A DNA stretch of 53,542 bases from Phycisphaerae bacterium. Its GTDB lineage: Bacteria > Planctomycetota > Phycisphaerae > WQYP01. This document shows, in pieces, positions 24,930 to 45,945 of the stretch; the stretch's first letter is position 1; every line of letters starts with the position of its first letter. Made by a program: the position numbers and the translations under genes. Below the pieces are notes generated by a model. It was not told the DNA's origin. It did not search any database and saw nothing but the letters and a program-made list of their open reading frames with translations. The stretch is taken from contig JBMFVX010000001.1 in assembly GCA_049965775.1 (NCBI GenBank), positions 9,483-63,024 on the forward strand. Direction: 5' to 3'.

Positions 24930-24965
24930 GGTTAAACTCCGTTTTTTGCGGACCATCGCAGGTGG

Positions 24966-27572: not shown

Positions 27573-27772
27573 GGTCGCTGCCTTTCTCCGCACTAACAAA
27601 TGCGCGGAATGTTCCTGCGCTCGGGCGAACGCTACAGTTCGCGGCCGACGCCGGATTGGCCGCCCCGTCTCCCCAGGGCCGGCAAACGTCATTGTGGGAC
27701 TTGCGGCGTTGCGGAGCAATGGCTTAAAAGCGTCGCATGATGCGTTGCAGAGGTGCCTGTGCAGGCGTTGTA

Positions 27773-27778
27773 ATTATA
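27773..27778 (-). promoter_or_regulatory. Putative -10 box (TATAAT, minus strand) for hppA
   Basis: The reverse complement of ATTATA at 27773-27778 is TATAAT. This would give a GC-rich leader of about 190 nt. The -35 is weak. Confidence 0.3.
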
Positions 27779-28178
27779 AAAGACAAGATCACTTTGAAAA
27801 TAAGAGATCATAGCATGAACATATATATATTACAACACTATTCATATAAGGCCGTAAATAGTGATGATTCGGCGATTGGTGCTAAATGAAAACACCTTTT
27901 TGCTTATGGTGTGGCTTGATGCATAGTTGCAAAGTATGGGATTAACATAGGGAATATACCGATTGTAAATGCCGAGCGCGTAGTAGGCTGATTTCAGGCG
28001 ATCTCCGAGCAAAATTATTTCTGATCGTGGCCTTTGTCGCACGCTGCAAGACTATAGGTAAAATGCTGATGGCCTATCACAGCATTTATTGTATAGCGTG
28101 TCGGTGGATAATCCTGATGTGGTTGGATTTGCACTACGGGTAAGCTGGCTTTCGAGAGTACAGAGCGGCGTGGCTGTT

Positions 28179-28194
28179 TGTGAAAAGTTTCACG
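28179..28194. promoter_or_regulatory. CRP/FNR-type palindrome TGTGA-N6-TCACG upstream of hypF
   Basis: 9 of 10 matches to TGTGA-N6-TCACA (read directly), centred 43 nt upstream of the hypF ATG. No recognisable -10 follows, so its role (activator site, operator or coincidence) is open. Confidence 0.3.
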
Positions 28195-28229
28195 AGGCCA
28201 AAGCCGCCGGGCTCTCTTGAGGCCGTCGT

Positions 28230-30632
28230 ATGGATCGGTCCTGCACAGCAGCGGAAGAGTTGAGGCGGCGGCGCTGGGTTGTCGCAGGCTGCGTGCAGGG
28301 CATTGGCTTTAGACCGTTCGTGTATCGCCTGGCGAAGCAATGCGGTCTCACTGGCTCAGTACGCAACGATTCGCAAGGCGTCGTCATAGAGATACAGGGA
28401 TGCTCCCAGTCGCTTAGCCTCTTTCAAAAGTCCTTTGCCGCTGCACTTCCGCCGCTAGCACAGGTCGCCAGCATAATAGAAGCGGATTGCCAACCCAACA
28501 TCGCGGAGACGCAATTTTCCATTGAACAGAGCGTGAGCGGCGATGCACCAACGGCCGGTATCGCACCGGACATAGCATTATGTGAAGCCTGCCGCGCGGA
28601 AATGCGTGATCCAGCCAACCGACGCTTTGGCCACGCACTTATCAGTTGCACCAATTGTGGGCCTCGATTCAGTATTGTTCGGTCTATTCCATATGATAGG
28701 CCTGCTACAACCATGGCCTCGTTTGAATTGTGCGGCCAATGTGCACAAGAATACATTAATCCGGATGACCGTCGGTTTCATGCACAGCCCGTGTCATGCC
28801 TTGCGTGCGGGCCGCAGATTGAGTTCATGGACAACGCTGGACGCATTGTGCCGGGCGATCCTGTTGCCACCGCCGCTCATTGGCTGCTCGAGGGCCGTAT
28901 CATTGCCATAAAAGGTATTGGCGGCTTTCACTTGGCTGCGCGTGCAGATCAGCCTTTGGTGGTTCATAGACTGCGGCAATTAAAACAGCGTGATGCCAAG
29001 CCGATGGCAGTGATGGTGTGCGATGAGGCGGAAGCCGGCAAGCTTATTGACCTGAGCGACAACGGCATTGCTGCACTAACCTCGCCAGCGGCCCCGATTG
29101 TATTGGCAACGCGCCGCAGCAGAACACCCATAGCGCCCCAAGTCGCCGCGGGAACTCATCGGCTGGGAGTCATGTTGGCGTACACGCCGCTACAGCATCT
29201 CCTGTTCGATCGGCTGGGCAACATTCCGTTGGTTATGACCAGCGGCAACATAAGTGATGAGCCAATCGCCATAAATAACCAGGAAGCGTTTACAAGGCTC
29301 GGGCCTCTCTGCGACGGGTTTCTCTGGCACGATCGTCCCATTCAGCGATGTGTGGATGATTCCGTCGTTTTAGATGCCGGACCGGGGAGAGAGATCATGC
29401 CGGTGCGGCGGTCGCGGGGTTACGTACCGGCGACAATTGAGTTGGGTGGCCCCAAAGGGTGTATGGGAATTGCCTTGGGGGGTGAACTAAAAAATACTCT
29501 CTGCGCGATCACCGACGCGGGGGCGGTACTAAGCGCTCATTTGGGCGATCTGCGGCATCAGAAAGCCTTTATGAACTTTAAGAGCGCCGTTGACGATTTG
29601 CTGCAACTGTATGATGTAAAGCCCGCGTTTGTTGCGTGTGATGCGCACCCTATGTATGTCAGTTCGCACTATGCGGTAGAGTTGGCCCGGCGGTATGGGG
29701 CCAGGTTAATTTCGGTGCAGCATCACCATGCGCACGCGTGTTCGGTGTTGGCGGAGCATAACCACTGGCAAGAGGCGCTGGCCCTGGTTTGCGACGGGAC
29801 CGGCTTGGGTAGCGATGGCGGCGGCTGGGGTGGGGAGTTGCTACGTGTCAGCCCGCAATCTTTTACACGACTAGGTTCGATAGCGCCTCTGCAACTGCCC
29901 GGCGGCGATGCCGCCGCAGTAGACATTCGTCGCAGTGCCTTGGCAATTTTATGGCGACTTTACGGGGTAGATGCAAGCACTCATCCCATTACGCGACGAC
30001 TGTTTCCAGAGTCGGCCGAACGTAACATGCTTTGCACCATGCTGCGTCACAATGTGCAAAGTGTGCTCTCCAGCAGCATTGGCCGACTCTATGACGGCCT
30101 GGCGGCCCTGCTTGGCGTTTGTACGCATAACCGATTCGAAGCACAGGCCGCCATGGCCCTCGAGGCCATTGCGTATCGCCACGTGCCAACACAGGGCTTA
30201 GAGCCTATGTGGAAAATTACGCCCTGGCATCAGGAGTCAGAGCGTTCCAGGCGACAAGAGTCGCAAAGGCTCGACCTCGATTTGTTTTGGCATTACGCAA
30301 TCGAATTACTGGTGCAGGGGGCCGCACCTGATCGGCTGGCCGCCGAGTTTCACTGGCAGTTGGCGATGGGATTGGCTTCGCTGGTTAAACAGCAGGCCGC
30401 AGAGACAGGGCTAAGCACCGTGGTATTGGCGGGTGGGGTATTTGTAAACGAAATATTGCGAGACCTAGTAATTGAGAATTTGGAAGACTGCGGTTTAAAA
30501 GTGTTGCGCAACTGCGCCGTGCCGTGCAACGATGGAGGTTTGGCTTTAGGCCAGGCTTTCGTTGCGGTGCACGATCCATCGCTTGCGGGATGCTGTAAAC
30601 CCGCTGAACAGGAGTGTGCTTTATGTGCTTAG
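28230..30632 (+). CDS. hypF: [NiFe]-hydrogenase maturation carbamoyltransferase HypF
   Basis: Acylphosphatase-like N-terminus (VQGIGFRPFVYRLA), two Zn-finger pairs (CEAC...CTNCGPRFS; CGQC...CLACGPQ), then YrdC-like and Kae1-like domains. 800 aa. GAGG RBS 7 nt upstream. Confidence 0.95.
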   Translation: MDRSCTAAEELRRRRWVVAGCVQGIGFRPFVYRLAKQCGLTGSVRNDSQGVVIEIQGCSQSLSLFQKSFAAALPPLAQVASIIEADCQPNIAETQFSIEQSVSGDAPTAGIAPDIALCEACRAEMRDPANRRFGHALISCTNCGPRFSIVRSIPYDRPATTMASFELCGQCAQEYINPDDRRFHAQPVSCLACGPQIEFMDNAGRIVPGDPVATAAHWLLEGRIIAIKGIGGFHLAARADQPLVVHRLRQLKQRDAKPMAVMVCDEAEAGKLIDLSDNGIAALTSPAAPIVLATRRSRTPIAPQVAAGTHRLGVMLAYTPLQHLLFDRLGNIPLVMTSGNISDEPIAINNQEAFTRLGPLCDGFLWHDRPIQRCVDDSVVLDAGPGREIMPVRRSRGYVPATIELGGPKGCMGIALGGELKNTLCAITDAGAVLSAHLGDLRHQKAFMNFKSAVDDLLQLYDVKPAFVACDAHPMYVSSHYAVELARRYGARLISVQHHHAHACSVLAEHNHWQEALALVCDGTGLGSDGGGWGGELLRVSPQSFTRLGSIAPLQLPGGDAAAVDIRRSALAILWRLYGVDASTHPITRRLFPESAERNMLCTMLRHNVQSVLSSSIGRLYDGLAALLGVCTHNRFEAQAAMALEAIAYRHVPTQGLEPMWKITPWHQESERSRRQESQRLDLDLFWHYAIELLVQGAAPDRLAAEFHWQLAMGLASLVKQQAAETGLSTVVLAGGVFVNEILRDLVIENLEDCGLKVLRNCAVPCNDGGLALGQAFVAVHDPSLAGCCKPAEQECALCA

Positions 30633-30898
30633 CGGTACCAGCACAATTGGTGGAGCAGGATGGCTCGTGTGGAGTGGTTGACCTGCATGGCAATCGCGTA
30701 CCTGTCAACACCCTGATGACGCCGGAGGCTGTAGTTGGTGATTGGGTCCTCATCCATGCCGGATTCGCCATTGAGCGATTGGATGCCCGGCAAGCCACCG
30801 AGACATGGTCGCTTATTAACGATCTCAAACGAGCTGGCATGCCTGCAACCTCTATGGGTGACGCGGCACCGGCTGCAGCAGGAGGCGATTATGAATAA
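30623..30898 (+). CDS. hypC: Hydrogenase assembly chaperone HypC/HupF
   Basis: Start set at MCLAVPAQL (the invariant N-terminal Cys2) with CAGGAG upstream. Overlaps the hypF stop by 10 nt. Confidence 0.9.
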   Translation: MCLAVPAQLVEQDGSCGVVDLHGNRVPVNTLMTPEAVVGDWVLIHAGFAIERLDARQATETWSLINDLKRAGMPATSMGDAAPAAAGGDYE

Positions 30899-32024
30899 TG
30901 CATTGTCACATAATGCAGAACCGCGCCTGCTGCTGCAACGGCTTCACGCTGCCGCAAAGCATGTGAAGGGACGATTGGCCTTTATGGAGGTATGCGGAAC
31001 GCACACAACGAGTGCCTTCCGGTGCGGGTTGCACAGCGTGCTGCCGGCAAATGTTCGATTAATCAGCGGGCCAGGCTGCCCTGTGTGTGTTACCTCTCAG
31101 GCGGATATAGATCAATTGGTGGGTCTGGCCCGGCGCGACGATGTTGTTTTGTGCACCTATGGTGACATGCTTCGTGTACCCGGCCAGCACAGCAGCCTTG
31201 AAAAAATCCGCGGTCAGGGCGGGCGTATTGAGGTGGTCTACAGCAGCCTCGACGCGGTTGCGTTGGCCCAGCGCGAACCGCATCGGCGCATCGTATTCGC
31301 CGCGGTCGGTTTTGAAACCACCGCACCAGCTACCGCTGTGGCCATTCGCCGAGCCGAAGAATTGCGACTTAAAAATTTCTCGGCATTGGCCAGTCATAAG
31401 ACCATTATTCCAGCGTTGCGAGCGTTATTAGAGGATCGCGGTCATCTCAAGATAAATGGATTTTTGTGTCCGGGGCACGTTTCGGTGGTGATTGGCTCGG
31501 ATGCCTATGTTCCTATTGTGCAGGAGTATGGCATAGCGTGCGTGATCGGTGGCTTTGAGCCAACGCTGCTGCTTGAAGCATTAGCTTGCCTGACTGAATT
31601 AGCGGCTGAAGGCAAGGCGGCGCTGGTCAATCAGTATCCGCAGGCTGTTTCTTCACGGGGAAACGGCCGCGCCCAAGCACTGCTGACACAGGTGTTTGAG
31701 CCGGCCGACGCACGTTGGCGCGGCATGGGCGTAATTGCAGGCAGCGGATTACGCATACGCAAAGAGTATGAGCGATTCGACGCACAGAAGGTGTTTGCTC
31801 TGCCAGTGCTGCAGGACTGTGAGCCGAAAGGATGCTTATGTGGGCAGGTCATAAGCGGGCAGATTGATCCGCCGAGGTGCTCGCTTTTTGCCCGCGCCTG
31901 CACACCGGTTAATCCGATAGGTCCCTGCATGGTCAGTTCGGAGGGGACTTGTGCTGCTTGGTTTAAGTACGGCCAAAAGAGAATGGTACCCGATGGCCGC
32001 CAGACGCAGGAGTCATTTTTATGA
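30891..32024 (+). CDS. hypD: Hydrogenase maturation Fe-S protein HypD
   Basis: MEVCGTHT, GPGCPVCVT and FLCPGHVS motifs. Start set at the ATG at 30891 (GGAGG upstream), overlapping the hypC stop. Confidence 0.95.
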   Translation: MNNALSHNAEPRLLLQRLHAAAKHVKGRLAFMEVCGTHTTSAFRCGLHSVLPANVRLISGPGCPVCVTSQADIDQLVGLARRDDVVLCTYGDMLRVPGQHSSLEKIRGQGGRIEVVYSSLDAVALAQREPHRRIVFAAVGFETTAPATAVAIRRAEELRLKNFSALASHKTIIPALRALLEDRGHLKINGFLCPGHVSVVIGSDAYVPIVQEYGIACVIGGFEPTLLLEALACLTELAAEGKAALVNQYPQAVSSRGNGRAQALLTQVFEPADARWRGMGVIAGSGLRIRKEYERFDAQKVFALPVLQDCEPKGCLCGQVISGQIDPPRCSLFARACTPVNPIGPCMVSSEGTCAAWFKYGQKRMVPDGRQTQESFL

Positions 32025-33073
32025 ATACGGCAACACCGCAGCATGCTCGATTTGACGCATTTGCCGGTCCGAAGTTATCGCGCATTGTCATGGCGCATGG
32101 CGGCGGCGGGCAGCTTACGGACGCTCTTGTTCATCAGCTTATATTGCCTCGCATTGGTAATCCGGCGCTGAATGAGCTGCTGGATTCCGGTTTTACCGCC
32201 GATGGCGCAACCGCCATCACCATTGACAGCTACGTAGTTCAACCGCTGTTTTTCCCAGGCGGTGATATTGGCCGGCTGGCCGTAAGCGGCACCGTCAATG
32301 ATCTGGCGGTTTGCGGCTGTAGGCCGTTGGGCTTGGCGCTTTCGCTGATTCTGGCGGAGGGCCTGGAGCAGCGCACGTTGGACAGGGTGCTTGAATCCAT
32401 AAACCGCACGGCACAGGAGGCTGGAGTTTCGATCCTTACGGGCGATACCAAAGTGGTCGGGCAGGGGCACGCGGACGGGATGTATATAACGACCGCCGGC
32501 GTGGGCGTTCGGCGCGAAGATTCGCGTTTGAGCATGGGAGCCATTGCGCCGGGCGATGTGTTGTTGATTAACGGCGCTATCGGCGAGCACGGACTGGCGG
32601 TGATGCTGGCTCGTGAAATGCCGGAAGTAAAAAGCGTTCTGCGTAGCGATGCGGCTCCGCTCAATGGACTGCTCGAAGTGCTTCAGGACGCGGTGCCTGG
32701 TGTGGTGTTTATGCGCGATGCGACGCGCGGTGGTCTTGCCGGGGTTTGTGCGGACATTGCAGCGCGGACTCATCGGCAGATAGTTCTTGATGAAACGCGG
32801 ATTCCGGTGCGTGTTGAGGCCCTGCACGCGGCCGAAATGCTTGGACTTGATCCATTGGACATAGCCAACGAAGGCAAGGTGGTGGTGGTGGTGCGCAGCC
32901 GCGACGCGAGCGTGGCGCTTTCGGCTATGCAAAGCCATCCTTTAGGGCGCGATGCCTGCGAAATCGGTCGAGTTGCTGAAACGCGCGATGGCTTATGCGT
33001 GCTTCACACAGCCATTGGCGGTCAGCGTATTGTACAGAAACCCTATGGAGAACAGTTGCCGAGGATTTGCTAA
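32021..33073 (+). CDS. hypE: Hydrogenase maturation carbamoyl dehydratase HypE
   Basis: PurM-like fold motifs and the characteristic C-terminal ...LPRIC. ATGA overlap with hypD. Confidence 0.95.
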   Translation: MNTATPQHARFDAFAGPKLSRIVMAHGGGGQLTDALVHQLILPRIGNPALNELLDSGFTADGATAITIDSYVVQPLFFPGGDIGRLAVSGTVNDLAVCGCRPLGLALSLILAEGLEQRTLDRVLESINRTAQEAGVSILTGDTKVVGQGHADGMYITTAGVGVRREDSRLSMGAIAPGDVLLINGAIGEHGLAVMLAREMPEVKSVLRSDAAPLNGLLEVLQDAVPGVVFMRDATRGGLAGVCADIAARTHRQIVLDETRIPVRVEALHAAEMLGLDPLDIANEGKVVVVVRSRDASVALSAMQSHPLGRDACEIGRVAETRDGLCVLHTAIGGQRIVQKPYGEQLPRIC

Positions 33074-33099
33074 GCCGGTCCTCTTTTAAGGAGAAGTTT

Positions 33100-33615
33100 A
33101 TGATGCTTCATGCTCCGCCCGTAACCGCACCGCCCACCAACGACAAGCGCTGGAAGATTGTCGAAACGGTAATGCGTCGCAATGACTTTGAACCCGAAGC
33201 ACTCATCGAAAGCCTGCACAGTGTTCAGCAGAGCTTTGGTTATCTGGACGAACCGTCCATGCGTTGGGTGGCCGGCGCGCTGCATGTGCCGTTATCGAAA
33301 GTGTATGCGGTGGCCACCTTTTACCATTTTTTCTCACTTAAGCCGCAGGGCCGTCATACCTGTGTGGTATGCCTGGGAACCGCGTGCTACATCAAGGGCG
33401 GCCGTCAGCTTCTGGATGAAGTTGAGCGTCATTATCACGTTCACGAGGGCAAAACCACAGAGGATGGCGAATTGTCTGTGATGGTGGCTCGCTGCATCGG
33501 CGCATGCGGCCTGGCTCCCACCACCGTGCTGGACGGACAGGTGCTTGGCAAGAAAACAGCGCCGCAATTGCTTGCCGCGATAGATGAAAAACTCCAAAGA
33601 AAGGTAACACCATGA
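33100..33615 (+). CDS. hoxE: Bidirectional hydrogenase diaphorase subunit HoxE (NuoE-like, [2Fe-2S])
   Basis: NuoE-type motifs (VATFYHFFSLKPQGRHTCVVCLGTACYIKG ... ARCIGACGLAP). Start set at the ATG at 33100 (AAGGAG upstream). Confidence 0.9.
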   Translation: MMLHAPPVTAPPTNDKRWKIVETVMRRNDFEPEALIESLHSVQQSFGYLDEPSMRWVAGALHVPLSKVYAVATFYHFFSLKPQGRHTCVVCLGTACYIKGGRQLLDEVERHYHVHEGKTTEDGELSVMVARCIGACGLAPTTVLDGQVLGKKTAPQLLAAIDEKLQRKVTP

Positions 33616-35270
33616 AACCGGAAGAACTGGAAAGCCTCGCGCAGAAAGCTCGACAGCATGATGAGAAATTCGCTCATCACATAAACGTTTGCATGGAATC
33701 GGGCTGCACCAGCTCGCAAAGCGATGTGGTGCTCACTCAACTGCAGGAACAGACCCAAAAACGGGGATGCGCCCAAAGCGTGCGTGTAAAGGCTGTGGGC
33801 TGCATGGGGCTGTGTTGCAATGGTCCGTTGGTTCGCGTGGATGATCGGTTGTACCAAAACGTTACACCTGCCGATGCCGGCGAGATTATAGCCTCGCTGA
33901 ACGGGCCCGTTGTGGAGCGACTGATCTGCGATACACAGCACCCATTTTTCACCAAACAAAAACTTGTGGTGCGCGAAAACTCCGGTCATACCGATCCAGA
34001 GGACATTGCCGACTGCATTGGGCACGGGGCGTATCAGTCGCTGCTCAAGGCGCTTACAAGCATGAGTCCCCAGCAGGTTGTTGCCGAAATATCAGAGTCG
34101 GGCCTTCGCGGACGTGGCGGAGCTGGCTTCCCCACAGGGCTTAAATGGGCCACGGTCGCCAAAGCCGGTGGACCACGCAAGTATGTGATCTGCAATGGCG
34201 ATGAGGGCGACCCTGGTGCTTTCATGGACCGCAGCGTTATGGAGGGCGATCCGCACCGGGTACTGGAAGGTATGGCCATCGCCGCCTACGCAGTTGGGGC
34301 TGAGCAGGGAGTTATATATGTGCGGGCGGAGTATCCGTTGGCGGTCAAACGATTGAATAAGGCTATTAATCAGGCGAGGAGGCAGGACCTGATTGGACAC
34401 GAAATCTTCGGCACCAAGTTTAACTTTAATGTTGAGGTAAGGTTGGGCGCTGGGGCATTCGTCTGCGGCGAGGAGACCTCGCTCATAGCCAGCGTGGAAG
34501 GCAATCGTGGGGTGCCGCGACCGAGGCCGCCGTATCCCGCGAATAAAGGGCTTCATGGCTGCCCAACGCTGATAAACAATGTTGAAACCTACGCCAACGT
34601 ACCGGCCATTATTAACCATGGCGCTGCTTGGTTTGCAGCCATGGGCACCGAAAAGAGCAAAGGCACCAAGGTTTTTGCGCTGACCGGCAAGATCAAAAAC
34701 TCCGGCCTTATTGAAGTGCCGATGGGCATTACGCTGCGGGAAATTATTTTTGACATTGCCGGCGGAATTCCGGACGGAAAGGCTTTTAAGGCTGTTCAAA
34801 CCGGCGGCCCCTCGGGAGGGTGCATACCCGCGGCCCACCTGGACCTGCCGGTAGAGTACGAGTCGCTGATGAAACTGGGATCCATTATGGGTTCGGGCGG
34901 CATGATCGTAATGGATGAGACCAGCAACATGGTGGATGTAGCGCGGTTTTTCATGGAGTTCTGCATGACTGAAAGCTGCGGCAAATGCGTGCCATGTCGC
35001 GTGGGCACCTACGAAATGCACGAATTGCTGGATCGCATCTGCCGAGCAGAAGGCTCACCGCACGATTTGGTGCTGCTGAAGGAATTGTGCGACATGGTTA
35101 AGCAAACGAGTCTGTGTGGACTCGGTCAGTCGGCGCCCAATCCGGTGCTTAGCACACTGCGTTTTTTTGAAGATGAATATCTGACGCTCATCCAACAGGC
35201 GCAGCAGCGCCGAGATCAGGACGACCGCACCGCGGATGAACGCCACCTTGCCTTGGAGGTGTTGCCATGA
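33612..35270 (+). CDS. hoxF: Bidirectional hydrogenase diaphorase subunit HoxF (NuoF-like, FMN/NAD(P), Fe-S)
   Basis: N-terminal thioredoxin-like [2Fe-2S] region, [26 protein letters not shown], and the 4Fe-4S motif [12 protein letters not shown]...SLCGLG. ATGA overlap with hoxE. Confidence 0.95.
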
Positions 35271-35998
35271 TTACCCAAGTTAATTCTTCTGTGGAATCGC
35301 TTACCCTGCGAATCAACGGCAAAGATGTGAGTTGTCGTGCCGGCGATACGGTGCTGCAGGCTGTGCGCGATAACGGCATGGAACTGCCAACGCTGTGCTG
35401 GTTGGAGGGCCTGACTGTCTGGGGCGGCTGCCGCCTGTGCATGGTGGAAATAGCTGGCTCGCCGAAGCTTCACGCTGCCTGCGCCACCGCTTGCCAGGAG
35501 GGCATGGAAGTGCAAACTAATTCTGATCGGTTACACCGTTATCGGCGCATGATTGTCGAACTGCTGTTGGCCGAACGCAATCACATCTGTTCGGTGTGCG
35601 TCAGCAATGGGCATTGCGAACTCCAGAGCTTGGCACAAAAGCTGGGCATTGACCATGTGCGCTTTGCATACCGAAATCCGCAACTCGAAGTTGATAATTC
35701 GCATGATCGGATGCGGCTTGATCATAACCGCTGCATTTTGTGTACGCGGTGCGTGCGCGTGTGCGCGGAGGTGGAGGGTGCCCGCACCAAAGATATCAAG
35801 GGGCGGGGCGTGTTGGCCGCGGTCATTCATGATCTTGACCAGCCTTGGGGAGAGAGCGAAACGTGCACAAGTTGCGGAAAATGCGTCAACGTATGCCCAA
35901 CCGGTGCTTTGACGCATCGGGGCGTTGCGGTTGGCGAAATGACTAAAAAGCTTGCATTTCTGCCGTATTTAACCCTTATGCGGGAGGCTAATCCATGA
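35267..35998 (+). CDS. hoxU: Bidirectional hydrogenase diaphorase subunit HoxU (NuoG N-terminal-like Fe-S protein)
   Basis: [2Fe-2S] motif (C...CRLC) and 4Fe-4S motifs [11 protein letters not shown] and [16 protein letters not shown] overlaps on both sides. Confidence 0.9.
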
Positions 35999-36561
35999 CC
36001 GAGTCCAACAAAAAACCGACGGTAGCCACAGTGTGGCTGGATGGTTGTTCGGGATGTCACATGAGCCTGCTCGACCTGGATGAACGTTTGATCACATTGG
36101 CGGGACTTGTGGATGTGCTTCACTCGCCGGTGGTGGATGACAAAAAATTTCCCGCCCGGGTTGATCTTACTCTGGTCGAGGGTGCGGTGAGTTCCGAGGA
36201 GGATTACCGCAAGGCTCGCATGATTCGCGCACGCAGCGCCTGCGTGCTGTCGCTAGGCGACTGCGCCGTTACCGGCAATGTGCCTGCCATGCGCAATTGT
36301 TTCGACCGTGCCTCGCTTTTTGAGCGAGCATACGTTGAAAACGCGTCGTACCCGCCGGAGCCTGGGCAGAGGCGGGTGGGTTTGCCGGTGTTGGGTGTAC
36401 CACCCCTGAGGCCTAAGGCTGTTCCACTGCATCAGGTGATTAAGGTGGATGTGTATGTTCCCGGTTGCCCGCCGCCGGCAAATGCAATCTGGTTTGCACT
36501 TTCAGAAATCCTCGCGGGCCGGATGCCCAGCATTACCGAGGTGACGCGTTTTGGGCTTTAA
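35995..36561 (+). CDS. hoxY: [NiFe] hydrogenase small subunit HoxY (group 3d type)
   Basis: 188 aa with only the proximal-cluster cysteines ([25 protein letters not shown]), as in Hox-type small subunits. Confidence 0.9.
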
Positions 36562-36599
36562 GCCAGTGACTTGAGCATGGCTGTACAGGAGGTAAATGT

Positions 36600-38027
36600 A
36601 TGAACCGCACGATTACAATTGAAGGCGTAACCCGCATTGAAGGCCACGCCCGCATAACAATTCAGCTTGATGAAGCTGGCAAAGTGGCCGACGCGCAATT
36701 TCATGTGACGCAATTCCGTGGTTTTGAGAAATTTGTGGAAGGCCGACCTCTTACCGAAATGCCCGCCATTATGGCCCGCATCTGCGGAATTTGTCCGGTA
36801 AGCCACCTGATGGCGTCGAGCAAAGCCTGCGATGACCTGCTGGCGGTCGAAATTCCGCCGAATGCGGCTCGTTTGCGGCGCATTATGAACCTGGCGCAGC
36901 TTGTACAAAGCCATGCTCTGTCGTTTTTCCATCTATCGAGTCCAGACTTGATTTTTGGCATGGATGGCGATCCAGCGAAGCGAAATATTTTTGGCCTCAT
37001 TCAAGACCACCCCGATTTCGCCCGCGATGGTATTATGCTGCGGAAATTCGGTCAGGATATCATCGGTCTGCTGGGCGGCAAGAAAATCCATCCGGCATGG
37101 ACTGTTCCCGGCGGGGTTAATGCACCGTTGACACAGGAACATCGAGACCAGATTGCCTCCATGATTCCTGATGCGCTGGCCCGTGCTTTGAGGGCCGCAG
37201 AATATTTTCAGCGTGTGCGCGACTGTTATCCCGCCGAGGTAGATGCCTTCGCTAATTTTCCCACGATGTTTGTGGGGCTGGTGTCTGCCGATAGATTGTT
37301 GGAGCATTATGATGGCACCTTGCTGTTTTCGGATGAACACGGAGCCCCAGTAGCTGAACTTCGTGAACCGCGCGAGTACGCCTCGCTTATTGCCGAAGCT
37401 GTTGAAAAGCATTCGTTTTTAAAGTCGCCTTATTTTCGGCCGCGGGGTTATCCGCATGGTATCTATCGGGTTGGCCCGCTGGCGCGTTTGGTGTTGGCGG
37501 AAGGATGCGGCACGCCGCTGGCTGATCGGGAACTGGATGTTTTTAGGCAGCGACTTGGCCGTGCTCCACAAAGCAGCTTTCATTACCATTGGGCGCGGCT
37601 GATTGAAATTATCTATGGAATTGAAATGATCCAGCGGCTGCTGGAACATCCCGATATTTTAAGTGAGCAAGTGCGAGCCCGCGCGCGGCCCAATAAACTG
37701 GAAGGCGTGGGCATCTCGGAAGCACCGCGCGGTACGCTGATTCATCACTACCGCATTGACGAAAACGGTTTAATGCGGTGGGCCAATCTCATTATTGCCA
37801 CCGGCAACAACAACCTTGCCATGAATCGCGGTGTGCTTCAGGTCGCGCGGCGATTTGTAGATGGCAATCGTCTGCAGGAAGGTATGCTCAACCGGGTTGA
37901 GGCGGTCATCCGCTGCTTTGATCCATGCCTTAGCTGCTCTACCCATGCGCTGGGACAAATGCCTCTGCGCATTGAATTATTGACCGCCCAAGGGGAGGTG
38001 TGCGATGCGCTCCAAAGACAAGATTAG
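36600..38027 (+). CDS. hoxH: [NiFe] hydrogenase large subunit HoxH (group 3d type)
   Basis: N-terminal [10 protein letters not shown] and C-terminal DPCLSCSTH Ni-binding motifs. A tail of about 26 aa follows the His, consistent with endopeptidase processing. CAGGAGG RBS. Confidence 0.95.
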
Positions 38028-38556
38028 CCGACCGATTGAACTCGACACGCTCGTAATTGGCTATGGCAATCCAATGCGCGGCGATGACGGCGCAGGGCCT
38101 GCTCTTGCCGAGCAGTTGTCGGAAAGATTGCAGCCATGGGGCTGTGGCCGCGTGAAGTGCATAAGCTGTATGCAACTTACGCCGGAACTTGCCGGCGATA
38201 TTGCCGCTGCCCGACGGGTTGTATTCGTGGATGCAAGCCTGGACATTGCCCCGGGCCATGTGGCGATTCGACGGGTTACCCCAAAGTCGCCTGCCAGCAA
38301 TTTCAGCCATCATCTTTCGCCTGGCGCTATGCTTTATCTGTGCCGACGAGCCCTCAATGCCGAGCCTGATGCTTGGGTGGTGGCTATTGGCGTGGAGTCC
38401 ATGCAGATTGGCGACGTGCTGAGCCTGCTGGCCGCCAAGGCGGTGGATCGTCTGGCTCGACGTCTGGCGTATCGGCTGGTGCGGCCGCGCAAGCCGGCGA
38501 CGCAAGCACACCCCCCAGCGCAACAAGGTCGCCGAACCAAACGCCAGTCGTTGTAA
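38005..38556 (+). CDS. hoxW: Hydrogenase maturation endopeptidase HoxW
   Basis: LVIGYGNPMRGDDGAG motif of the HyaD/HybD/HoxW protease family. Overlaps the hoxH 3' end by 23 nt. Confidence 0.85.
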   Translation: MRSKDKISRPIELDTLVIGYGNPMRGDDGAGPALAEQLSERLQPWGCGRVKCISCMQLTPELAGDIAAARRVVFVDASLDIAPGHVAIRRVTPKSPASNFSHHLSPGAMLYLCRRALNAEPDAWVVAIGVESMQIGDVLSLLAAKAVDRLARRLAYRLVRPRKPATQAHPPAQQGRRTKRQSL

Positions 38557-38578
38557 CAACCTAACAAAAGGATAGATC

Positions 38579-41500
38579 ATGAAAAGCCATAACTTAATAC
38601 CTGTTGACGGCAATGAGGCGGCGGCTGACGTGGCTTACCGTCTAAGTGAAATGGTTGCGTTGTACCCGATCACGCCTGCCAGCGTTATGGGGGAACTGGC
38701 CGACGAATGGGCCGCGCGCGGTCGCGAGAACCTTTTTGGCTCTATTCCGCGCGTTGTGGAAATGCAGAGCGAGGCAGGCGCTATTGGCGCGGTGCATGGT
38801 GGCCTACAGGCAGGTGTGCTGTGCACAACTTTTACCGCCTCGCAGGGATTGCTGCTGATGATTCCCAACATGTACAAAATAGCCGGGGAATTGACTCCAT
38901 TTGTCATGCATGTGGCGGCGCGGTCGCTGGCTACGCACGCCCTGTCCATTTTTGGCGATCATTCTGACGTTATGGCATGCCGCCAAACCGGCTTTGCCAT
39001 GCTTGCTTCTTCCAGTGTGCAGGAAGCGCATGATCAAGCAGCCATCGCCACGTCCGCAACGCTGAAATCGCGTGTGCCATTTGTGCATTTCTTTGATGGT
39101 TTTCGCACCTCGCATGAAATTAACTGTATTGAGCCGCTTCAAGATGAGCATCTTCGCCTTTTTGTTGACCAGGCCGATATTGCCGCCCATCGCGCCCGTG
39201 GGCTTACGCCCGACAAACCGGTTCTGCGCGGTACAGCACAGAACCCGGACGTTTTCTTTCAGGCTCGCGAGGCGGCTAATCCATTTTATCAGTCGCTAGG
39301 TGTTTTGATTGAGAGCCAAATGCAGCGATTTGCGGAAATAACCGGCCGCCGGTATCAACCTTATCAATATGTCGGATCGCCGGACGCAACTAATGTAATT
39401 ATAGCCATGGGATCGGGCGCCCAGACGGTTGCGCAAACAGTTCGGTGGCTTAATAGTCAGGGACAATCCTGCGGTTGCGTGATTGTGCGTATGTATCGGC
39501 CCTTTGCCGGTTCGATGTTCGTCGGCGTCCTGCCACCCGCGGTCAAACGGATTGCCGTGCTCGATCGTTGTAAAGAGCCAGGTTCTCTTGGTGAACCCCT
39601 CTATCAGGATGTGCTTACTTCGCTCATAGAAGCCAGGGATTCAGGCTTAGTGCCCGAGATTCCGCTGGTTAGCGGAGGTCGCTATGGCCTGTCCAGCAAA
39701 GAGTTTACGCCGGCCATGGTACGAGCCATATTTGATGAGCTATCTCGTTCAGAACCTCGCAGGCATTTTACCGTCGGCATTGTGGATGATGTCACGCGGC
39801 TTTCGCTGCCCGTGCAGGAATCGCTTGACATTGAACCGGCTGATACGTTTCGGGCGCTATTTTATGGCCTCGGCTCGGACGGAACTGTTGGTGCCAACAA
39901 AAACTCCATCAAGATTATCGCACAGGAAACGGGCCGCAGTGCCCAGGCATATTTCGTCTACGACTCGAAAAAATCGGGCGCGCTGACGGTATCGCACCTG
40001 CGCTTTGGTCCAAGTGCCATATGTGCACCGTATTTGATTAATCAAGCTGATTTTATTGCATGCCATCAGTTTGAATTTTTAGAAAAGATGGATATTGTCG
40101 AGCATCTCAAACCCGGAGGCGTTGTGCTCCTGAATGCCCCCTGGTCGTCTCAGGATCTTTGGCCGCATCTGCCCTTGGAAGTGCAGGAGGCGCTTATCGC
40201 ACGGCGGGCGCGTGTATTTGCGATTGACGCCGGGGCAGTTGCCCGTGAAGCGGGTATGGGGCGGCGTATCAATACGATCATGCAAACTTGCTTCTTCGCG
40301 ATATCCGGTGTTTTGGCACGCGACGAGGCGATTGCCGCAATCAAGCGAGCCATAAGCAAAACCTACGCCAAGCGTGGCGACGAGGTAGTGCGCCGAAACT
40401 TTGCGGCAGTTGATGCAGCTTTGGCCAAACTCTACGAGATTGCTTTGCCTGCAAAGGCCGATTCTACCTTGCATCAAACAGGCTATTTCCAGCAGGCAAT
40501 GCCGGAGTTTACCGCTCGCGTGCAGGCCGTAATGATGGCGGGCAAGGGCGACAGCCTGCCGGTGAGTGCTTTTCCGGTGGATGGCACATGGCCAACCGGC
40601 ACCACCCGTTGGGAAAAGCGCAATATTGCAGAGGAGATTCCGGTTTGGGAACCCACGCTGTGCATTCAATGCAATAAGTGCTCTTTTGTCTGTCCGCATG
40701 CCGCCATACGTGCAAAGGTCTGCGTATCCGAAGACCTTGCCGGAGCACCGGCTGGGTTTCTCACTGCTGCGTATAAGGCACCTGACTTTAAAGGCATGCG
40801 TTACGTGCTTCAGGTTGCCCCGGAAGACTGCACCGGTTGCGGCCTGTGCATTCAGATTTGTCCCGCCAAAGATAAAGCCAACCCGCGCGTTAAAGCGATC
40901 GGCGCCATGCCGCGGCTAAACGTGCTGGATCGCGAGAAATCGCGGTACGACTTCTTCCTCTCGTTGCCGGAGGTTGACCGCACTGCCATTACACGGCTGG
41001 ACGCCAAGACCAGTCAATTCATGCTGCCCCTGTTCGAGTATTCGGGCGCTTGCGCCGGTTGCGGTGAAACTCCATACATTAAACTGCTCACCCAACTTTT
41101 CGGCGATCGGCTGGTCATAGCCAACGCCACCGGTTGCTCGTCTATTTATGGTGGAAACCTGCCTACAACGCCCTACACCCACGACGCAAAGGGCCGAGGG
41201 CCGGCATGGAATAACTCTCTCTTTGAGGATAATGCCGAATTCGGGTTGGGGCTTGCAATGGGCACAGGTGCTCGCACCAGCCAGGCAAGACGTCTTTTGC
41301 AGGAGCTTACACCTGTGCTCGGCCACGCGATTGTAAATGAACTGCTCTCGGCTCCGCAGTCTACCGAGGCGGATATAGTTCAACAGCGGGATCGCGTAGA
41401 GCAATTACGGCAGCGGCTGAAAACGGTTGCTGAACCGGCAGCCAGGCTCCTTGAAACGTTTGCCGACTATCTGTTGGAAAAATCTGTTTGGATTATTGGC

Positions 41501-42187
41501 GGCGATGGATGGGCTTATGATATCGGCTACGGCGGCCTGGATCATGTGCTGAGCTTGTCGGAAAAGGTTCGCATTCTGGTTCTGGACACTGAGGTGTATT
41601 CCAATACGGGCGGCCAAAGCTCCAAGAGTACGCCCATCGGCGCGGCGGCCAAATTTGCCGCACTGGGCAAAGCCACGCAGAAGAAAGACCTGGGTCTTAT
41701 GGCAATGAGTTACCGCCACGCCTACGTGGCGAGTGTTGCTTTTGGCGCTAACGACAATCAGACTGTCAAAGCATTTGCGGAGGCCAATGCGTTCCCCGGC
41801 CCGGCAATTATTATTGCCTATGCGCACTGCATAGCACACGGATACGACTTGCGCTTTGGTTGCGAACAGCAGAAGCTCGCCGTGGACAGCGGCATTTGGC
41901 CATTGTATCGGTACGATCCACGATTGATAGGCCAAGGTAAGCCGCCGCTCCAAATAGACAGCCCGGTCGTTCGCGCGGCTGTCAGTGACTATCTTCGCAA
42001 CGAAACACGCTTTGCCATGGTGGAAAAAATTGACCCGAAGCGCTTTCATGAATTGGGTCAGGCTGCGGCGCGCAACACCACAGAACGACTAGCTCTCTAT
42101 CACGAACTCGCACGTATTGCTTATCCGGCCGGCAGCAATGGCAGTAACACCGATGAAAAGGCGATTAAAGAAGGAGCTCCATCATGA
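38579..42187 (+). CDS. nifJ: Pyruvate:ferredoxin (flavodoxin) oxidoreductase, single-polypeptide type
   Basis: 1202 aa. Ferredoxin-domain motifs CIQCNKCSFVCPHAAIR and CTGCGLCIQICP, TPP motif GGDGWAYDIGYGGLDHV. AAAGGA RBS 22 nt after the hoxW stop. Confidence 0.95.
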   Translation: MKSHNLIPVDGNEAAADVAYRLSEMVALYPITPASVMGELADEWAARGRENLFGSIPRVVEMQSEAGAIGAVHGGLQAGVLCTTFTASQGLLLMIPNMYKIAGELTPFVMHVAARSLATHALSIFGDHSDVMACRQTGFAMLASSSVQEAHDQAAIATSATLKSRVPFVHFFDGFRTSHEINCIEPLQDEHLRLFVDQADIAAHRARGLTPDKPVLRGTAQNPDVFFQAREAANPFYQSLGVLIESQMQRFAEITGRRYQPYQYVGSPDATNVIIAMGSGAQTVAQTVRWLNSQGQSCGCVIVRMYRPFAGSMFVGVLPPAVKRIAVLDRCKEPGSLGEPLYQDVLTSLIEARDSGLVPEIPLVSGGRYGLSSKEFTPAMVRAIFDELSRSEPRRHFTVGIVDDVTRLSLPVQESLDIEPADTFRALFYGLGSDGTVGANKNSIKIIAQETGRSAQAYFVYDSKKSGALTVSHLRFGPSAICAPYLINQADFIACHQFEFLEKMDIVEHLKPGGVVLLNAPWSSQDLWPHLPLEVQEALIARRARVFAIDAGAVAREAGMGRRINTIMQTCFFAISGVLARDEAIAAIKRAISKTYAKRGDEVVRRNFAAVDAALAKLYEIALPAKADSTLHQTGYFQQAMPEFTARVQAVMMAGKGDSLPVSAFPVDGTWPTGTTRWEKRNIAEEIPVWEPTLCIQCNKCSFVCPHAAIRAKVCVSEDLAGAPAGFLTAAYKAPDFKGMRYVLQVAPEDCTGCGLCIQICPAKDKANPRVKAIGAMPRLNVLDREKSRYDFFLSLPEVDRTAITRLDAKTSQFMLPLFEYSGACAGCGETPYIKLLTQLFGDRLVIANATGCSSIYGGNLPTTPYTHDAKGRGPAWNNSLFEDNAEFGLGLAMGTGARTSQARRLLQELTPVLGHAIVNELLSAPQSTEADIVQQRDRVEQLRQRLKTVAEPAARLLETFADYLLEKSVWIIGGDGWAYDIGYGGLDHVLSLSEKVRILVLDTEVYSNTGGQSSKSTPIGAAAKFAALGKATQKKDLGLMAMSYRHAYVASVAFGANDNQTVKAFAEANAFPGPAIIIAYAHCIAHGYDLRFGCEQQKLAVDSGIWPLYRYDPRLIGQGKPPLQIDSPVVRAAVSDYLRNETRFAMVEKIDPKRFHELGQAAARNTTERLALYHELARIAYPAGSNGSNTDEKAIKEGAPS

Positions 42188-43206
42188 ATCTGTCCTGCAG
42201 TTATATGGGATTCCAATTGACGAGTCCGCTCATACCGGGTGCTTCGCCCCTGGTGGATGATCTTGACACCGTTCGACGGCTTGAGGATGCCGGCGCGCCG
42301 ATGATCATCATGCACTCCATATTTGAAGAGCAACTGGTGCACGAACAACTTTATGTTAACGAAACCATTGAGTACCCGGAAGAGTCTTACAGCGAGGCGG
42401 CGACCTATCTGCCCCGGCCTGATGATTTTCGACTTGGGTCGGAATCGTATCTGCGGCAGCTTGCCGCAATAAAGGCCGCGGTGGATGTACCGGTCATCGC
42501 GTCGCTGAATGGCCGAACGCGCGGCGGCTGGATCAATTATGCGAAGCTTCTGCAGCAGGCCGGCGCCGATGGAATCGAGCTTAATATTTATGAGATGTCG
42601 CTGTCTGCCGAAAGAAGCAGCGCACAGGTGGAGCGCGAATCGCTGGCGGTAATTAAAGATGTGCTGTCAGCAGTGCATATTCCGGTGGCTGTGAAGCTTT
42701 CGTCATTTTATGCAGCTCCGGTTCACTTTGCGGCGGCGGTTGCAGCCGCCGGCGCAAAGGCTGTGGTCATTTTTAATCGCTTTTACCAGGCCGACATAGA
42801 TATCGAAAATCTATGCCTGCGCCGGCAACTCAAATTGTCAACTTCTGACGAGCTTCTGTTGCGGCTAAGGTGGGGTGCGGCTATCAGCAGTCAAGTTGAC
42901 TGTGATCTTGCCATTACCGGGGGGGTGCAAACCGCGACCGACGCAATAAAGTGCGTCATGGTCGGAGCCGAGGCGGTACAGGTTGTCTCGGCACTGCTGG
43001 AGTTTGGGCCGGAGCATCTGGCGCAGTTGAACCGTGGCATTATGGAATGGATGGAATCGCACGAATATTTGTCGCTTTCTCAGATGAAAGGCTCCATGAG
43101 CTTGCCGCGCTCGCCCGAGCCTGAAATTTTTGAGCGTAGCAATTACATGCGAATTCTTCAGGGATGGAAGGGGGCGGAGGCCGGTGCCGATCAGTTTTGG
43201 AGCTAA
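42184..43206 (+). CDS. Dihydroorotate dehydrogenase-like TIM-barrel flavoprotein (function unknown)
   Basis: DHOD class-1-like fold motifs (GADGIELN..., ITGGVQTATDAIKCVMVGAEAVQVVSAL). After ELN, however, the canonical S-C/S-P-N catalytic loop is replaced by IYEMSLS. ATGA overlap with nifJ. Confidence 0.8.
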   Translation: MNLSCSYMGFQLTSPLIPGASPLVDDLDTVRRLEDAGAPMIIMHSIFEEQLVHEQLYVNETIEYPEESYSEAATYLPRPDDFRLGSESYLRQLAAIKAAVDVPVIASLNGRTRGGWINYAKLLQQAGADGIELNIYEMSLSAERSSAQVERESLAVIKDVLSAVHIPVAVKLSSFYAAPVHFAAAVAAAGAKAVVIFNRFYQADIDIENLCLRRQLKLSTSDELLLRLRWGAAISSQVDCDLAITGGVQTATDAIKCVMVGAEAVQVVSALLEFGPEHLAQLNRGIMEWMESHEYLSLSQMKGSMSLPRSPEPEIFERSNYMRILQGWKGAEAGADQFWS

Positions 43207-43208
43207 AA

Positions 43209-43625
43209 ATGCACGAAATGTCGCTGGCGGTTGACCTCATGGAACTGGTGAAAAGGCATGTGCCGGCGTCGGCTTGTCTGATGACGGTAACGGTGCGTAT
43301 CGGCCCGATGCACGGTGTTGTCGCCGAGGCCCTGCAATGGGCATGGAGTGCGGTAAGCAGCGAGACGACTTGGCCGAAAGCCAAGCTTGTTATCGAAACT
43401 CCGCCCTGGCGTTTGCGTTGCCCTCGCTGTGGTCGTTTGTGGGAGCCGACGACCGTGGACGAGCACTGTACCTGCGGCGCGGTGCATGCCCACATCGAAG
43501 GCGGCGATGAGTTCACTTTGGTTTCAGTTGATGTTGCGGACTTTGATGAATCGGTCGAAAATCAAGCCCACTGTGAGGTTGAGGCGCCTTCTGCATTGGA
43601 TACCGTTGTAAAAGGTGATATGTGA
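43209..43625 (+). CDS. hypA: Hydrogenase nickel-insertion protein HypA
   Basis: Starts with MHEMSLA (conserved Ni-binding N-terminus). Zn motif CPRC...CTC. Start set at the ATG at 43209, 2 nt after the preceding stop. Confidence 0.85.
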   Translation: MHEMSLAVDLMELVKRHVPASACLMTVTVRIGPMHGVVAEALQWAWSAVSSETTWPKAKLVIETPPWRLRCPRCGRLWEPTTVDEHCTCGAVHAHIEGGDEFTLVSVDVADFDESVENQAHCEVEAPSALDTVVKGDM

Positions 43626-44272
43626 AGACAATTCCCGTAGTCGAAAATGTGCTCAAACTTAACGACGAAGTCGCCTTGCTCAATAGACGACAATTCAGGC
43701 AGGCGGGCGTGTTTGTAATAGACCTTATCGGCGCACCAGGTTCTGGTAAAACTGCCCTGTTGGAGGCCACGCTTAACGCTCTTGTGGGCCGATGTCGTGC
43801 GGGAGTTATCGTCGGCGATCCAGCTACCAGCCGCGATGGTGAACGACTGGGTTGCCATTGTGAACAAGTTGTGCAGGTCAATACCGGGCATGGCTGTCAT
43901 CTTGACGCCAATCAGGTGCGTCAGGCGATGGGGCGGCTGAATGTGGCCGAGCTTGATTTACTGTTCATTGAAAACGTCGGCAACCTGATTTGCCCGGTCG
44001 GTTTTGATCTCGGGCAGAATGCCAAAGTGGGGCTTTTCAGCGTGAGTGAAGGTGACGATAAGGCCGCCAAACATCCACATCTGGTTCTGGCCGCTGATGT
44101 TTTGCTGCTTAATAAAATGGACCTTCTGGAGCATGTGTCGTTTAACCGCGACCGGTTCCTTGAGGATATCCGGCATCTTCGTGCCGATGTGCAGGTTATT
44201 GAGTTGGCGGCCACCAAGGGGCTGCTTGCAGAGTGGATTGACTGGCTTCTTTCTCGCTGTCGGGTCCGGTAG
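43622..44272 (+). CDS. hypB: Hydrogenase nickel-incorporation GTPase HypB
   Basis: GAPGSGKT P-loop, ENVGNLICP metal/switch motif, NKMDL. GTG start overlapping the hypA stop (GTGA). Confidence 0.9.
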   Translation: MKTIPVVENVLKLNDEVALLNRRQFRQAGVFVIDLIGAPGSGKTALLEATLNALVGRCRAGVIVGDPATSRDGERLGCHCEQVVQVNTGHGCHLDANQVRQAMGRLNVAELDLLFIENVGNLICPVGFDLGQNAKVGLFSVSEGDDKAAKHPHLVLAADVLLLNKMDLLEHVSFNRDRFLEDIRHLRADVQVIELAATKGLLAEWIDWLLSRCRVR

Positions 44273-44371
44273 GTGCTTGCACTGGCGACAATCGCAAAAC
44301 GACCCGCCTCTAAAGCCATGGTAGAACCTGATCCATAGAATCGGGTATTATCGTAGGCCTTAAGGAGTGCT

Positions 44372-45934: not shown

Positions 45935-45945
45935 AGGCAGCCTCG

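Follow-up and report, generated by a model that had tools for sequence, protein, structure and literature searches.

A dihydroorotate dehydrogenase-like protein encoded with pyruvate:ferredoxin oxidoreductase in a planctomycete hydrogenase gene cluster and in other bacteria

Pyruvate:ferredoxin/flavodoxin oxidoreductase (PFOR), the product of nifJ, is central to anaerobic and hypoxic carbon metabolism and to biological H2 production. It carries a chain of three [4Fe-4S] clusters, and ferredoxin or flavodoxin is usually regarded as its acceptor. In the pyruvate:NADP+ oxidoreductase of Euglena and Cryptosporidium, PFOR is fused to a flavoprotein reductase. In Synechocystis, sll0741 (nifJ), sll0743, and sll0744, which is annotated as "dihydroorotate dehydrogenase (fumarate)", form one transcription unit, and this unit is transiently induced together with the hox genes on entry into microoxia (PMC11368403). 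In Propionibacterium, the PFOR gene is flanked by a GltD-like gene and a gene similar to dihydroorotate dehydrogenase (DHOD), both co-transcribed with it and the latter also co-regulated, and the authors postulated, without biochemistry, an Nfn/Fix-like bifurcating complex (PMC7650540). A DHOD-like gene of Microcystis is among its strongest night-induced genes. Here we analyse a DHOD-like gene that lies directly 3' of nifJ in 53,542 nt of DNA from a Phycisphaerae bacterium (the whole stretch is called the window, and all positions in it are counted from its first letter), within a cluster of hyp and hox hydrogenase genes. An earlier note on this DNA left it open whether the pairing had been studied. 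It had been noticed in the two papers cited above, while no biochemical characterisation of the DHOD-like protein was found in the literature searched. The protein belongs to a curated and widely annotated family, and the open interest lies in its function.

Pairing of nifJ with the DHOD-like gene

The map of open reading frames (ORFs) agrees with the gene junctions given in the earlier note. The ATG of the DHOD-like gene (42184-42186) and the TGA of nifJ (42185-42187) share a 4-nt ATGA overlap, and the hypA ATG at 43209 follows 2 nt past the TAA of the DHOD-like gene (43204-43206), with a GGAG read in the sequence 7 nt 5' of it. The same note had asked for a survey of nifJ adjacency in other genomes. 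A scan of one genome per GTDB species found at least 582 relatives of the DHOD-like protein, and we examined the best 80 (43-58% identity). These came from Acidobacteriota, Verrucomicrobiota (including Akkermansia), Planctomycetota, Gemmatimonadota, Cyanobacteria, Chloroflexota, Ignavibacteriota, Bacteroidota, Myxococcota, Nitrospirales, Propionibacteriaceae, and Proteobacteria. In 78 of the 80 genomes (97%), which represent at least 12 phyla, the gene has nifJ upstream of it on the same strand, an adjacency far beyond chance. The median gap from the nifJ stop to the start of the DHOD-like gene is 11 nt (0 or less in 13 loci, 1-15 nt in 31, 16-100 nt in 22, and more than 500 nt in 3).

Neighbours were surveyed by tblastn with the window proteins, which served to locate nifJ and any hox genes within 8 kb, and by all-against-all clustering of the flanking ORFs. 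ORF clustering found no third conserved neighbour, the commonest flanking family being present in 4 of the 80 loci. The hox genes were nearby in three loci, from a member of the Phycisphaeraceae (L030), a member of the Gloeobacterales (L069), and a member of the Chloroflexota with the order nifJ, DHOD-like gene, hoxE, hoxF (L076). Thus, the conserved unit is a two-gene cassette of nifJ and the DHOD-like gene, and its placement in a hox/hyp cluster is recurrent but rare. Since no more than 3 of the 80 relatives have hox genes close to the cassette, nifJ rather than hox is the true partner of the DHOD-like gene. The gene is embedded in a hydrogenase operon in the window, as previously described, but this context is local and not general.

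A second collection, made up of annotated plasmids and mis-filed chromosomes, held nifJ in 41 records and the DHOD-like gene in 10, so that most of the nifJ genes sampled there are without it. Plasmids of Methylovirgula and Phenylobacterium carry an adjacent pair annotated as nifJ and the DHOD-like gene, in that order. No DHOD-like gene adjoins nifJ in E. coli (ydbK), Azospirillum, Sporomusa, Fusobacterium, Listeria, or Monoglobus. Two other genomes without a DHOD-like gene have different genes next to nifJ: a flavodoxin gene directly downstream in Rahnella (L093, 5070-5603), and NfnA-like and NfnB-like genes directly upstream in Enterococcus (L092, 1-1468). Therefore, the slot beside nifJ is commonly held by electron-transfer partners. 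At loci without nifJ next to it, the DHOD-like gene is found beside genes of fermentation, namely pfk and hypD (Acaryochloris) or ldh and ppsA (Stanieria). Genes for Hsp20 and a zinc-dependent alcohol dehydrogenase occur both in the window (576-1526 and 3313-4823) and beside the DHOD-like gene on Acaryochloris plasmid pREB4 (L081), and a zinc-dependent alcohol dehydrogenase gene also lies 5' of the cassette in Phenylobacterium. This recurrence may be coincidental or may be the trace of a "hypoxia island" set of genes.

The window NifJ is complete. It contains the Pfam domains POR_N, PFOR_II, POR, EKR, and Fer4, has a 2x[4Fe-4S] domain at residues 688-765, and matches the Moorella thermoacetica PFOR (6CIN_A) over its full length (residues 9-1178). 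To look for marks of the partnership, we compared 59 PFORs with a DHOD-like gene adjoining nifJ and 9 with none adjoining nifJ or on the same record. In the ferredoxin-like domain, a 6-residue insert, DKANPR in the window protein (residues 766-771, nt about 40874-40891), comes just past the second [4Fe-4S] motif. All 59 partnered PFORs have this insert. It is missing from the PFORs of Firmicutes and Fusobacterium and the nif-type PFOR of Rahnella, but it is also found in the PFORs of E. coli, Azospirillum, and Aeromonas, for which a DHOD-like gene was seen neither adjoining nifJ nor on the record searched. Since the insert, together with K700 and K766, is common to Azospirillum and partly to E. 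coli and Aeromonas, these features would mark a sub-clade of PFORs instead of the partnership.

Other genes were considered as additional partners. A GltD/NfnB-like gene is near the cassette in 3 of the 80 loci (L023, L040, L056) and on two alphaproteobacterial plasmids. In all five, it lies 5' of nifJ and the DHOD-like gene, forming a three-gene cassette (L085 1716-3356 in Phenylobacterium and L086 1670-3340 in Methylovirgula for the plasmids). The encoded protein has the domains Fer4_20, Pyr_redox_2, and, at the C-terminus, 2x[4Fe-4S]. Its nearest relatives of known structure belong to bifurcating enzymes, as modules of the NfnB type (9BOV, 8OH5_C, 5JCA_L). Together with the DHOD-like barrel, it supplies all the domain types of dihydropyrimidine dehydrogenase (DPD), distributed differently. 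The window has no GltD-like gene by tblastn with the proteins from the two plasmids. As an obligatory partner, in an arrangement like that of PreT and PreA, the GltD/NfnB-like protein was rejected because it is confined to these three loci, the two plasmids, and Propionibacterium (from the literature). An NfnA-like gene accompanies it in L023 and L040, and an NfnAB-like pair adjoins nifJ in Enterococcus without a DHOD-like gene; therefore, it may simply be a ferredoxin:NAD(P)+ oxidoreductase.

Also encoded in the window (12181-13260, minus strand) is a 359-aa orphan, an FAD/[2Fe-2S] protein similar to PyrK and NfnA whose N-terminus is extended by about 120 aa. With 134 bits against 314, it does not reach any PyrK or NfnA cut-off. 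It has no PyrD or NfnB gene beside it and is flanked by an aldo-keto reductase gene (13345-14367) and a weak glycosyltransferase-like ORF. This protein was rejected as a partner because its gene does not recur beside the cassette, homologues being near it in only L023 and L040 among the 80 loci. In the window, the gene is on the opposite strand at a distance of 29 kb. In the fetched loci, the only homologues are NfnA-like genes that lie 5' of nfnB-like, nifJ, and DHOD-like genes in two Holophagaceae metagenome-assembled genomes.

Family, motifs, and predicted structure of the DHOD-like protein

Domains were assigned with Pfam and NCBIfam/TIGRFAM hidden Markov models and their curated cut-offs, a check that had been proposed beforehand. 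The DHOD-like protein matched NF005741 (PRK07565, "dihydroorotate dehydrogenase-like protein") at 398.1 bits (cut-off 303), with residues 1-328 on profile positions 2-329 of 335. Its match to Pfam DHO_dh was weak (47 bits, gathering score 27), and the models of true DHODs failed. The best of them, NF005574, gave 85 bits against 269; TIGR01037 gave 70.6 against 270, class 2 DHOD models gave at most 26.5 against cut-offs of at least 200, and the PreA model NF006183 gave 68 against 335. Thus, each PyrD or PreA equivalog model was missed by about 185-270 bits. We found no pyr genes in the window cluster and no pyrimidine genes near the cassette in the 80 loci. There was no Pfam match to Fer4 or another Fe-S domain, and likewise none to an NAD(P)-binding domain.

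A sequence search found no solved structure of a close relative. The closest solved protein is the PyrD subunit of Lactococcus lactis DHODB (1EP1_A; HMMER E-values of 1e-6 when the single sequence is the query and 4e-16 when the family profile is). The translation contains GADGIELN, ELNIYEMSLSAERS, and ITGGVQTATDAIKCVMVGAEAVQVVSAL. In the HMMER alignment, IELNISCPNV of 1EP1_A pairs with IELNIYEMSL of the window protein, placing E137 under the Cys, the catalytic residue of DHODB in published work. The catalytic residue of DHODs is therefore absent. An alignment of 81 sequences from at least 12 phyla shows that this column is variable (Y/H/D/L/S/E) and that no Cys is conserved across the family, the commonest being at position 310 in 51% of the sequences. 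The earlier proposal that this is not a DHOD, and that it has neither an Fe-S motif nor an adjacent PyrK, is borne out by these results.

The family is large. A profile search of 1.84 billion representatives gave at least 1640 clusters at 50% identity (E <= 1e-30), and the best 150 representatives are all stand-alone proteins of 270-420 aa. Metagenomic relatives are mostly labelled "dihydroorotate dehydrogenase (fumarate)" in JGI annotations, a name that the sequence evidence fails to support. We conclude that the window protein is a member of NF005741, a large stand-alone family of FMN-type (flavin mononucleotide; predicted) TIM-barrel proteins, and not a dihydroorotate dehydrogenase. From its annotation and operon position, Synechocystis sll0744 is a probable member as well.

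Many residues are invariant in the 81 sequences: S45, F47, E48, E49, E71, P77, Y89, N109, W116, E132, N134, Y136, E150, K171, F197, N198, R199, Q202, D204, S219, W230, G247, G261, A262, R318, and Y321. The set, from S45-x-F-E-E to R318, is fully present in the window protein, and most of it persists in a 32%-identical Bacteroides homologue. Y136 is replaced by L in that homologue and by H in Phenylobacterium. Compared with L. lactis DHODB PyrD, the protein keeps N134 (Asn of ELN), K171 (Lys of VKLSP), and G246-G247-V248 (GGV), whose equivalents in DHOD structures are FMN-binding positions. In class 1A DHODs, the loop between strand 2 and helix 2 carries Lys43 and Asn67 (L. lactis DHODA numbering). 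By position, this orotate-binding loop would be replaced in the family by an acidic insert (Table 1). The insert has a net charge of -9 in the window protein and a median of -8 in the family. All of the family is acidic, the median pI being 5.1 and the median net charge -13, more than half of which lies in this 46-residue insert. Flavodoxins and ferredoxins are typically acidic.

An AlphaFold2 model had a mean predicted local distance difference test score (pLDDT) of 77.9 with a confident TIM barrel, and it has the predicted fold of DHOD and DPD. The first Foldseek match was domain IV of pig DPD (E-value 1e-15, about 18% identity), followed by class 1A DHODs (template modelling score about 0.67). 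In the modelled monomer, pLDDT was low in residues 48-83 of the insert (below 50) and in the C-terminal helix (residues 313-328, including the invariant R318 and Y321). Judging from the model, these two elements are conserved yet seem poorly ordered, as expected of interface or lid elements.

Proposed function of the pair and alternatives

The reading we favour, with a probability of about 0.5, is that the DHOD-like protein is an FMN subunit wired to PFOR, which would dock on PFOR, take electrons from its Fe-S chain, and reduce a two-electron acceptor. For docking, the acidic barrel might use its acidic insert and C-terminal helix. The predicted FMN would then receive electrons singly from the three [4Fe-4S] clusters of PFOR and, once reduced, would pass them to an acceptor in an invariant polar pocket formed by E48, E49, N109, N134, E150, K171, N198, R199, Q202, D204, and S219. 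Candidate acceptors are fumarate or a similar small carboxylic acid, NAD(P)+, and O2. The result would be an exit for PFOR electrons without free ferredoxin during hypoxic or fermentative metabolism. This reading draws on analogy with DPD, in which the FMN domain is fed by an Fe-S wire, and with PyrD, which is fed by PyrK. In its favour are the tight pairing with nifJ, the electron-transfer genes that take the slot beside nifJ in other bacteria, an acidity like that of the known PFOR acceptors, the two conserved but poorly ordered elements, the joint expression with PFOR in Synechocystis and Propionibacterium, the night induction in Microcystis, and the fermentation genes that adjoin the gene at loci without nifJ beside it. 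The electron relay or safety valve suggested in the earlier note is likewise a proposed mechanism. More tentatively, PFOR and the DHOD-like protein might make up a two-subunit, ferredoxin-independent pyruvate:acceptor oxidoreductase, in which electrons would run from the distal [4Fe-4S] cluster through the FMN barrel to a metabolite or NAD(P)+; this we hold to be possible rather than probable.

Several points weigh against a subunit wired to PFOR. The alignment of the 59 partnered and 9 unpartnered PFORs gave no clean residue or indel that tracks the DHOD-like partner. Because the 80 loci come from the nearest relatives of the query, adjacency in more distant branches is under-sampled. In Bacteroides and Parabacteroides, a distant branch retains the signature although its genes are not beside nifJ. 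No fusion of PFOR and the DHOD-like protein was seen among the best 150 family representatives. Moreover, the invariant polar residues would fit an enzyme with its own substrate, for which free ferredoxin, flavodoxin, or NAD(P)H could serve just as well.

Such a free-standing fermentative reductase, not wired to PFOR and co-expressed with it for stoichiometry only, seems to us rather unlikely. It would be reduced by one of these diffusible donors and would act on a metabolite of pyruvate or hypoxic metabolism, for example turning fumarate into succinate as in the second half-reaction of class 1A DHODs. The lack of fusions agrees with it, as do the fumarate-reducing class 1A DHODs among the best structural matches, the presence of ldh and ppsA or of pfk next to the gene when it is away from nifJ, and the polar pocket (N109, N134, N198, R199, Q202, D204, E48, E49) kept in Bacteroides homologues that are not beside nifJ. 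However, adjacency in 78 of 80 loci at a median of 11 nt with no other neighbour is tighter than is usual for pathway partners. The protein also lacks an NAD(P)-binding domain and an Fe-S cluster of its own, and the proton-donor Cys of class 1A enzymes is absent, with its possible substitute Y136 being L or H in some members. We find it improbable that the protein is a protective or maintenance factor, the safety valve of the earlier note, which would drain PFOR electrons to O2 or another oxidant, or re-reduce and repair PFOR in oxygen-exposed organisms. Such a factor would guard the radical and Fe-S chemistry of PFOR against damage when conditions change between oxic and anoxic. The cassette occurs mainly in Acidobacteriota, Verrucomicrobiota, Planctomycetota, Gemmatimonadota, Cyanobacteria, Methylovirgula, and Phenylobacterium, which are largely aerobic, microaerobic, or phototrophic, and is absent from the nifJ loci examined in Sporomusa, Fusobacterium, and Monoglobus; the transient induction of the Synechocystis operon on entry into microoxia also fits. 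This distribution comes from a taxon sample biased to relatives of the query, though, and the facultative or aerobic E. coli, Azospirillum, and Aeromonas have closely related PFORs with no DHOD-like gene by nifJ or on the record searched, while no sequence feature of the protein points to O2 chemistry.

Two further explanations follow from the place of the gene in the window and from its name. A partner of the Hox diaphorase or hydrogenase, relaying electrons between HoxEFU and another carrier, would suit a gene that lies between hoxW and hypA, as well as the three relatives in which the cassette abuts hox and the co-induction with hox in Synechocystis. It is nevertheless very unlikely, since 77 of the 80 relatives have no hox genes within 8 kb while 78 have nifJ, and since the gene was always found together with nifJ and in no case with hox alone. 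We give next to no credence to the idea that the protein truly is a dihydroorotate or dihydropyrimidine dehydrogenase with PFOR for a redox partner. The Pfam DHO_dh score above the gathering score and the JGI label on relatives agree with such an enzyme, and so do N134 and N198, which align with the Asn residues in the motifs ELN and INT of PyrD from L. lactis DHODB (in DHOD structures, these Asn contact the pyrimidine ring). Against this stand the failure of all PyrD and PreA equivalog models, the variable column at the catalytic Cys/Ser, the probable replacement of the Lys43/Asn67 loop by the family-specific insert, the lack of a C-terminal Fe-S domain such as that of PreA and DPD, and the absence of pyrimidine genes near the 80 loci.

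If PFOR and the DHOD-like protein indeed make up a two-subunit pyruvate:acceptor oxidoreductase, this would provide a new exit for low-potential electrons from pyruvate in hypoxic cyanobacteria, Akkermansia, propionibacteria, acidobacteria, and planctomycetes, and a function for a family of at least 1640 clusters. The DHOD-like protein, whose gene goes together with nifJ in 97% of the sampled cases across a dozen phyla, points to a gap in the picture of how these PFORs are used. The phyla with the pair include model, medically relevant, or industrially relevant organisms (Synechocystis, Akkermansia, and propionibacteria). Moreover, when pyrimidine synthesis and fumarate respiration are reconstructed from annotations, the misnaming as "dihydroorotate dehydrogenase (fumarate)" can corrupt the result.

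The window gene cluster and comparison with known systems

The cluster that holds the cassette spans 28230-44272 in the order hypF, hypC, hypD, hypE, hoxE, hoxF, hoxU, hoxY, hoxH, hoxW, nifJ, DHOD-like gene, hypA, hypB (Table 1). All its genes are on the plus strand, and neighbours overlap or are separated by at most a few tens of bases. The hypC-like ORF is a putative hypC, named for its N-terminal motif, which is typical of HypC. Identical proteins in public data carry the label Phycisphaerales bacterium (a Planctomycetota metagenome-assembled genome). Back-to-back with the cluster, at 23895-27719 on the minus strand, are genes for a NicO-type nickel permease, which plausibly supplies the [NiFe] hydrogenase with nickel, and a 917-aa H+-translocating pyrophosphatase. 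Directly 3' of hypB (44372-47415) are two genes, one for a protein like the phytoene desaturases of the CrtI family (TIGR02734, 523 bits) and one for an aldehyde dehydrogenase; they have no relation to the hydrogenase cluster and form its downstream boundary. A promoter and terminator scan of 27700-44700 gave nothing above the shuffled expectation and no intergenic terminator, and such a scan is uninformative for a planctomycete.

Table 1. Features of the hyp/hox cluster, the nifJ cassette, and the DHOD-like protein in the window
Feature	Position	Strand	Basis or remark
hypF	28230..30632	+	Carbamoyltransferase, [NiFe] maturation; first gene of the cluster; Pfam HypF_C_2, zf-HYPF, Acylphosphatase, Sua5
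hypC-like small ORF	30614..30898	+	N-terminus MCLAVPAQ; ORF and translation, putative motif-based assignment
hypD	30735..32024	+	Pfam HypD, 463 bits; true start probably downstream of 30735
hypE	32021..33073	+	Pfam AIRS, AIRS_C; place between hypD and hoxE
hoxE, diaphorase 2Fe-2S subunit	32995..33615	+	NF005747 HoxE, 231 bits (cut-off 224)
hoxF, NAD(P)H/FMN diaphorase subunit	33612..35270	+	Pfam Complex1_51K, NADH_4Fe-4S
hoxU	35267..35998	+	NF005745 HoxU, 371 bits (cut-off 333)
hoxY, [NiFe] hydrogenase small subunit	35995..36561	+	Pfam Oxidored_q6
hoxH, [NiFe] hydrogenase large subunit	36600..38027	+	Pfam NiFeSe_Hases
hoxW, hydrogenase maturation endopeptidase	38005..38556	+	TIGR00072, 73 bits (cut-off 47)
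nifJ, single-chain pyruvate:ferredoxin/flavodoxin oxidoreductase, 1202 aa	38579..42187	+	TIGR02176, 1687.6 bits (cut-off 911)
AAGGAG, Shine-Dalgarno-like motif	42171..42176	+	Inside the 3' end of nifJ, 7 nt 5' of the DHOD-like ATG
DHOD-like protein, NF005741 family, 340 aa	42184..43206	+	Hidden Markov models, AlphaFold2 model, Foldseek
Family-specific acidic insert, aa 45-90	42316..42453	+	Invariant S45, F47, E48, E49, E71, P77, Y89
Loop after strand 4, ELNIYEMSLSAERS, aa 132-145	42577..42618	+	E132 and N134 kept; catalytic Cys/Ser position is E137, variable in the family
Family signature FNRFYQADID, aa 197-206, after strand 6	42772..42801	+	F197, N198, R199, Q202, D204 invariant, including distant Bacteroides homologues
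hypA	43209..43625	+	Pfam HypA, 78 bits
hypB	43622..44272	+	TIGR00073, 223 bits (cut-off 121)

Among known systems, the window protein is most like other NF005741 members, including probably sll0744 and the PFOR-flanking gene product of Propionibacterium freudenreichii and P. acidipropionici, in its length (about 330-340 aa), its invariant motifs, and the place of its gene directly 3' of nifJ. The window cassette differs from other loci of the family in lying between hoxW and hypA within one hyp/hox cluster, which is rare, and from those of Propionibacterium and the alphaproteobacterial plasmids in having no GltD/NfnB-like gene beside it.

DPD (PreA/PreT in bacteria) is the best structural match and shares a DHOD-fold FMN barrel, there supplied by a [4Fe-4S] chain from other domains. 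However, the identity is about 18%, and the window protein lacks the catalytic Cys (C671 in pig DPD), the C-terminal 2x[4Fe-4S] domain, and an adjacent PreT; we propose that the Fe-S wire here would be that of PFOR. Class 1B DHOD, the PyrD-PyrK heterotetramer of L. lactis (1EP1), resembles the window pair in joining a small FMN barrel to an Fe-S partner encoded separately by an adjacent gene, but in the window protein the catalytic Cys is gone and the orotate-binding loop probably replaced, and the partner would be PFOR instead of PyrK. Finally, the pair recalls nifJ-nifF, in which a flavoprotein acceptor is encoded beside PFOR, and the pyruvate:NADP+ oxidoreductase of Euglena and Cryptosporidium, in which one is fused to it, and the DHOD-like protein is acidic as flavodoxins and ferredoxins are. 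Unlike proteins with the flavodoxin/cytochrome P450 reductase fold, it is predicted to be a TIM barrel, and its conserved, enzyme-like pocket suggests a role in reducing a substrate and not in electron carriage alone.

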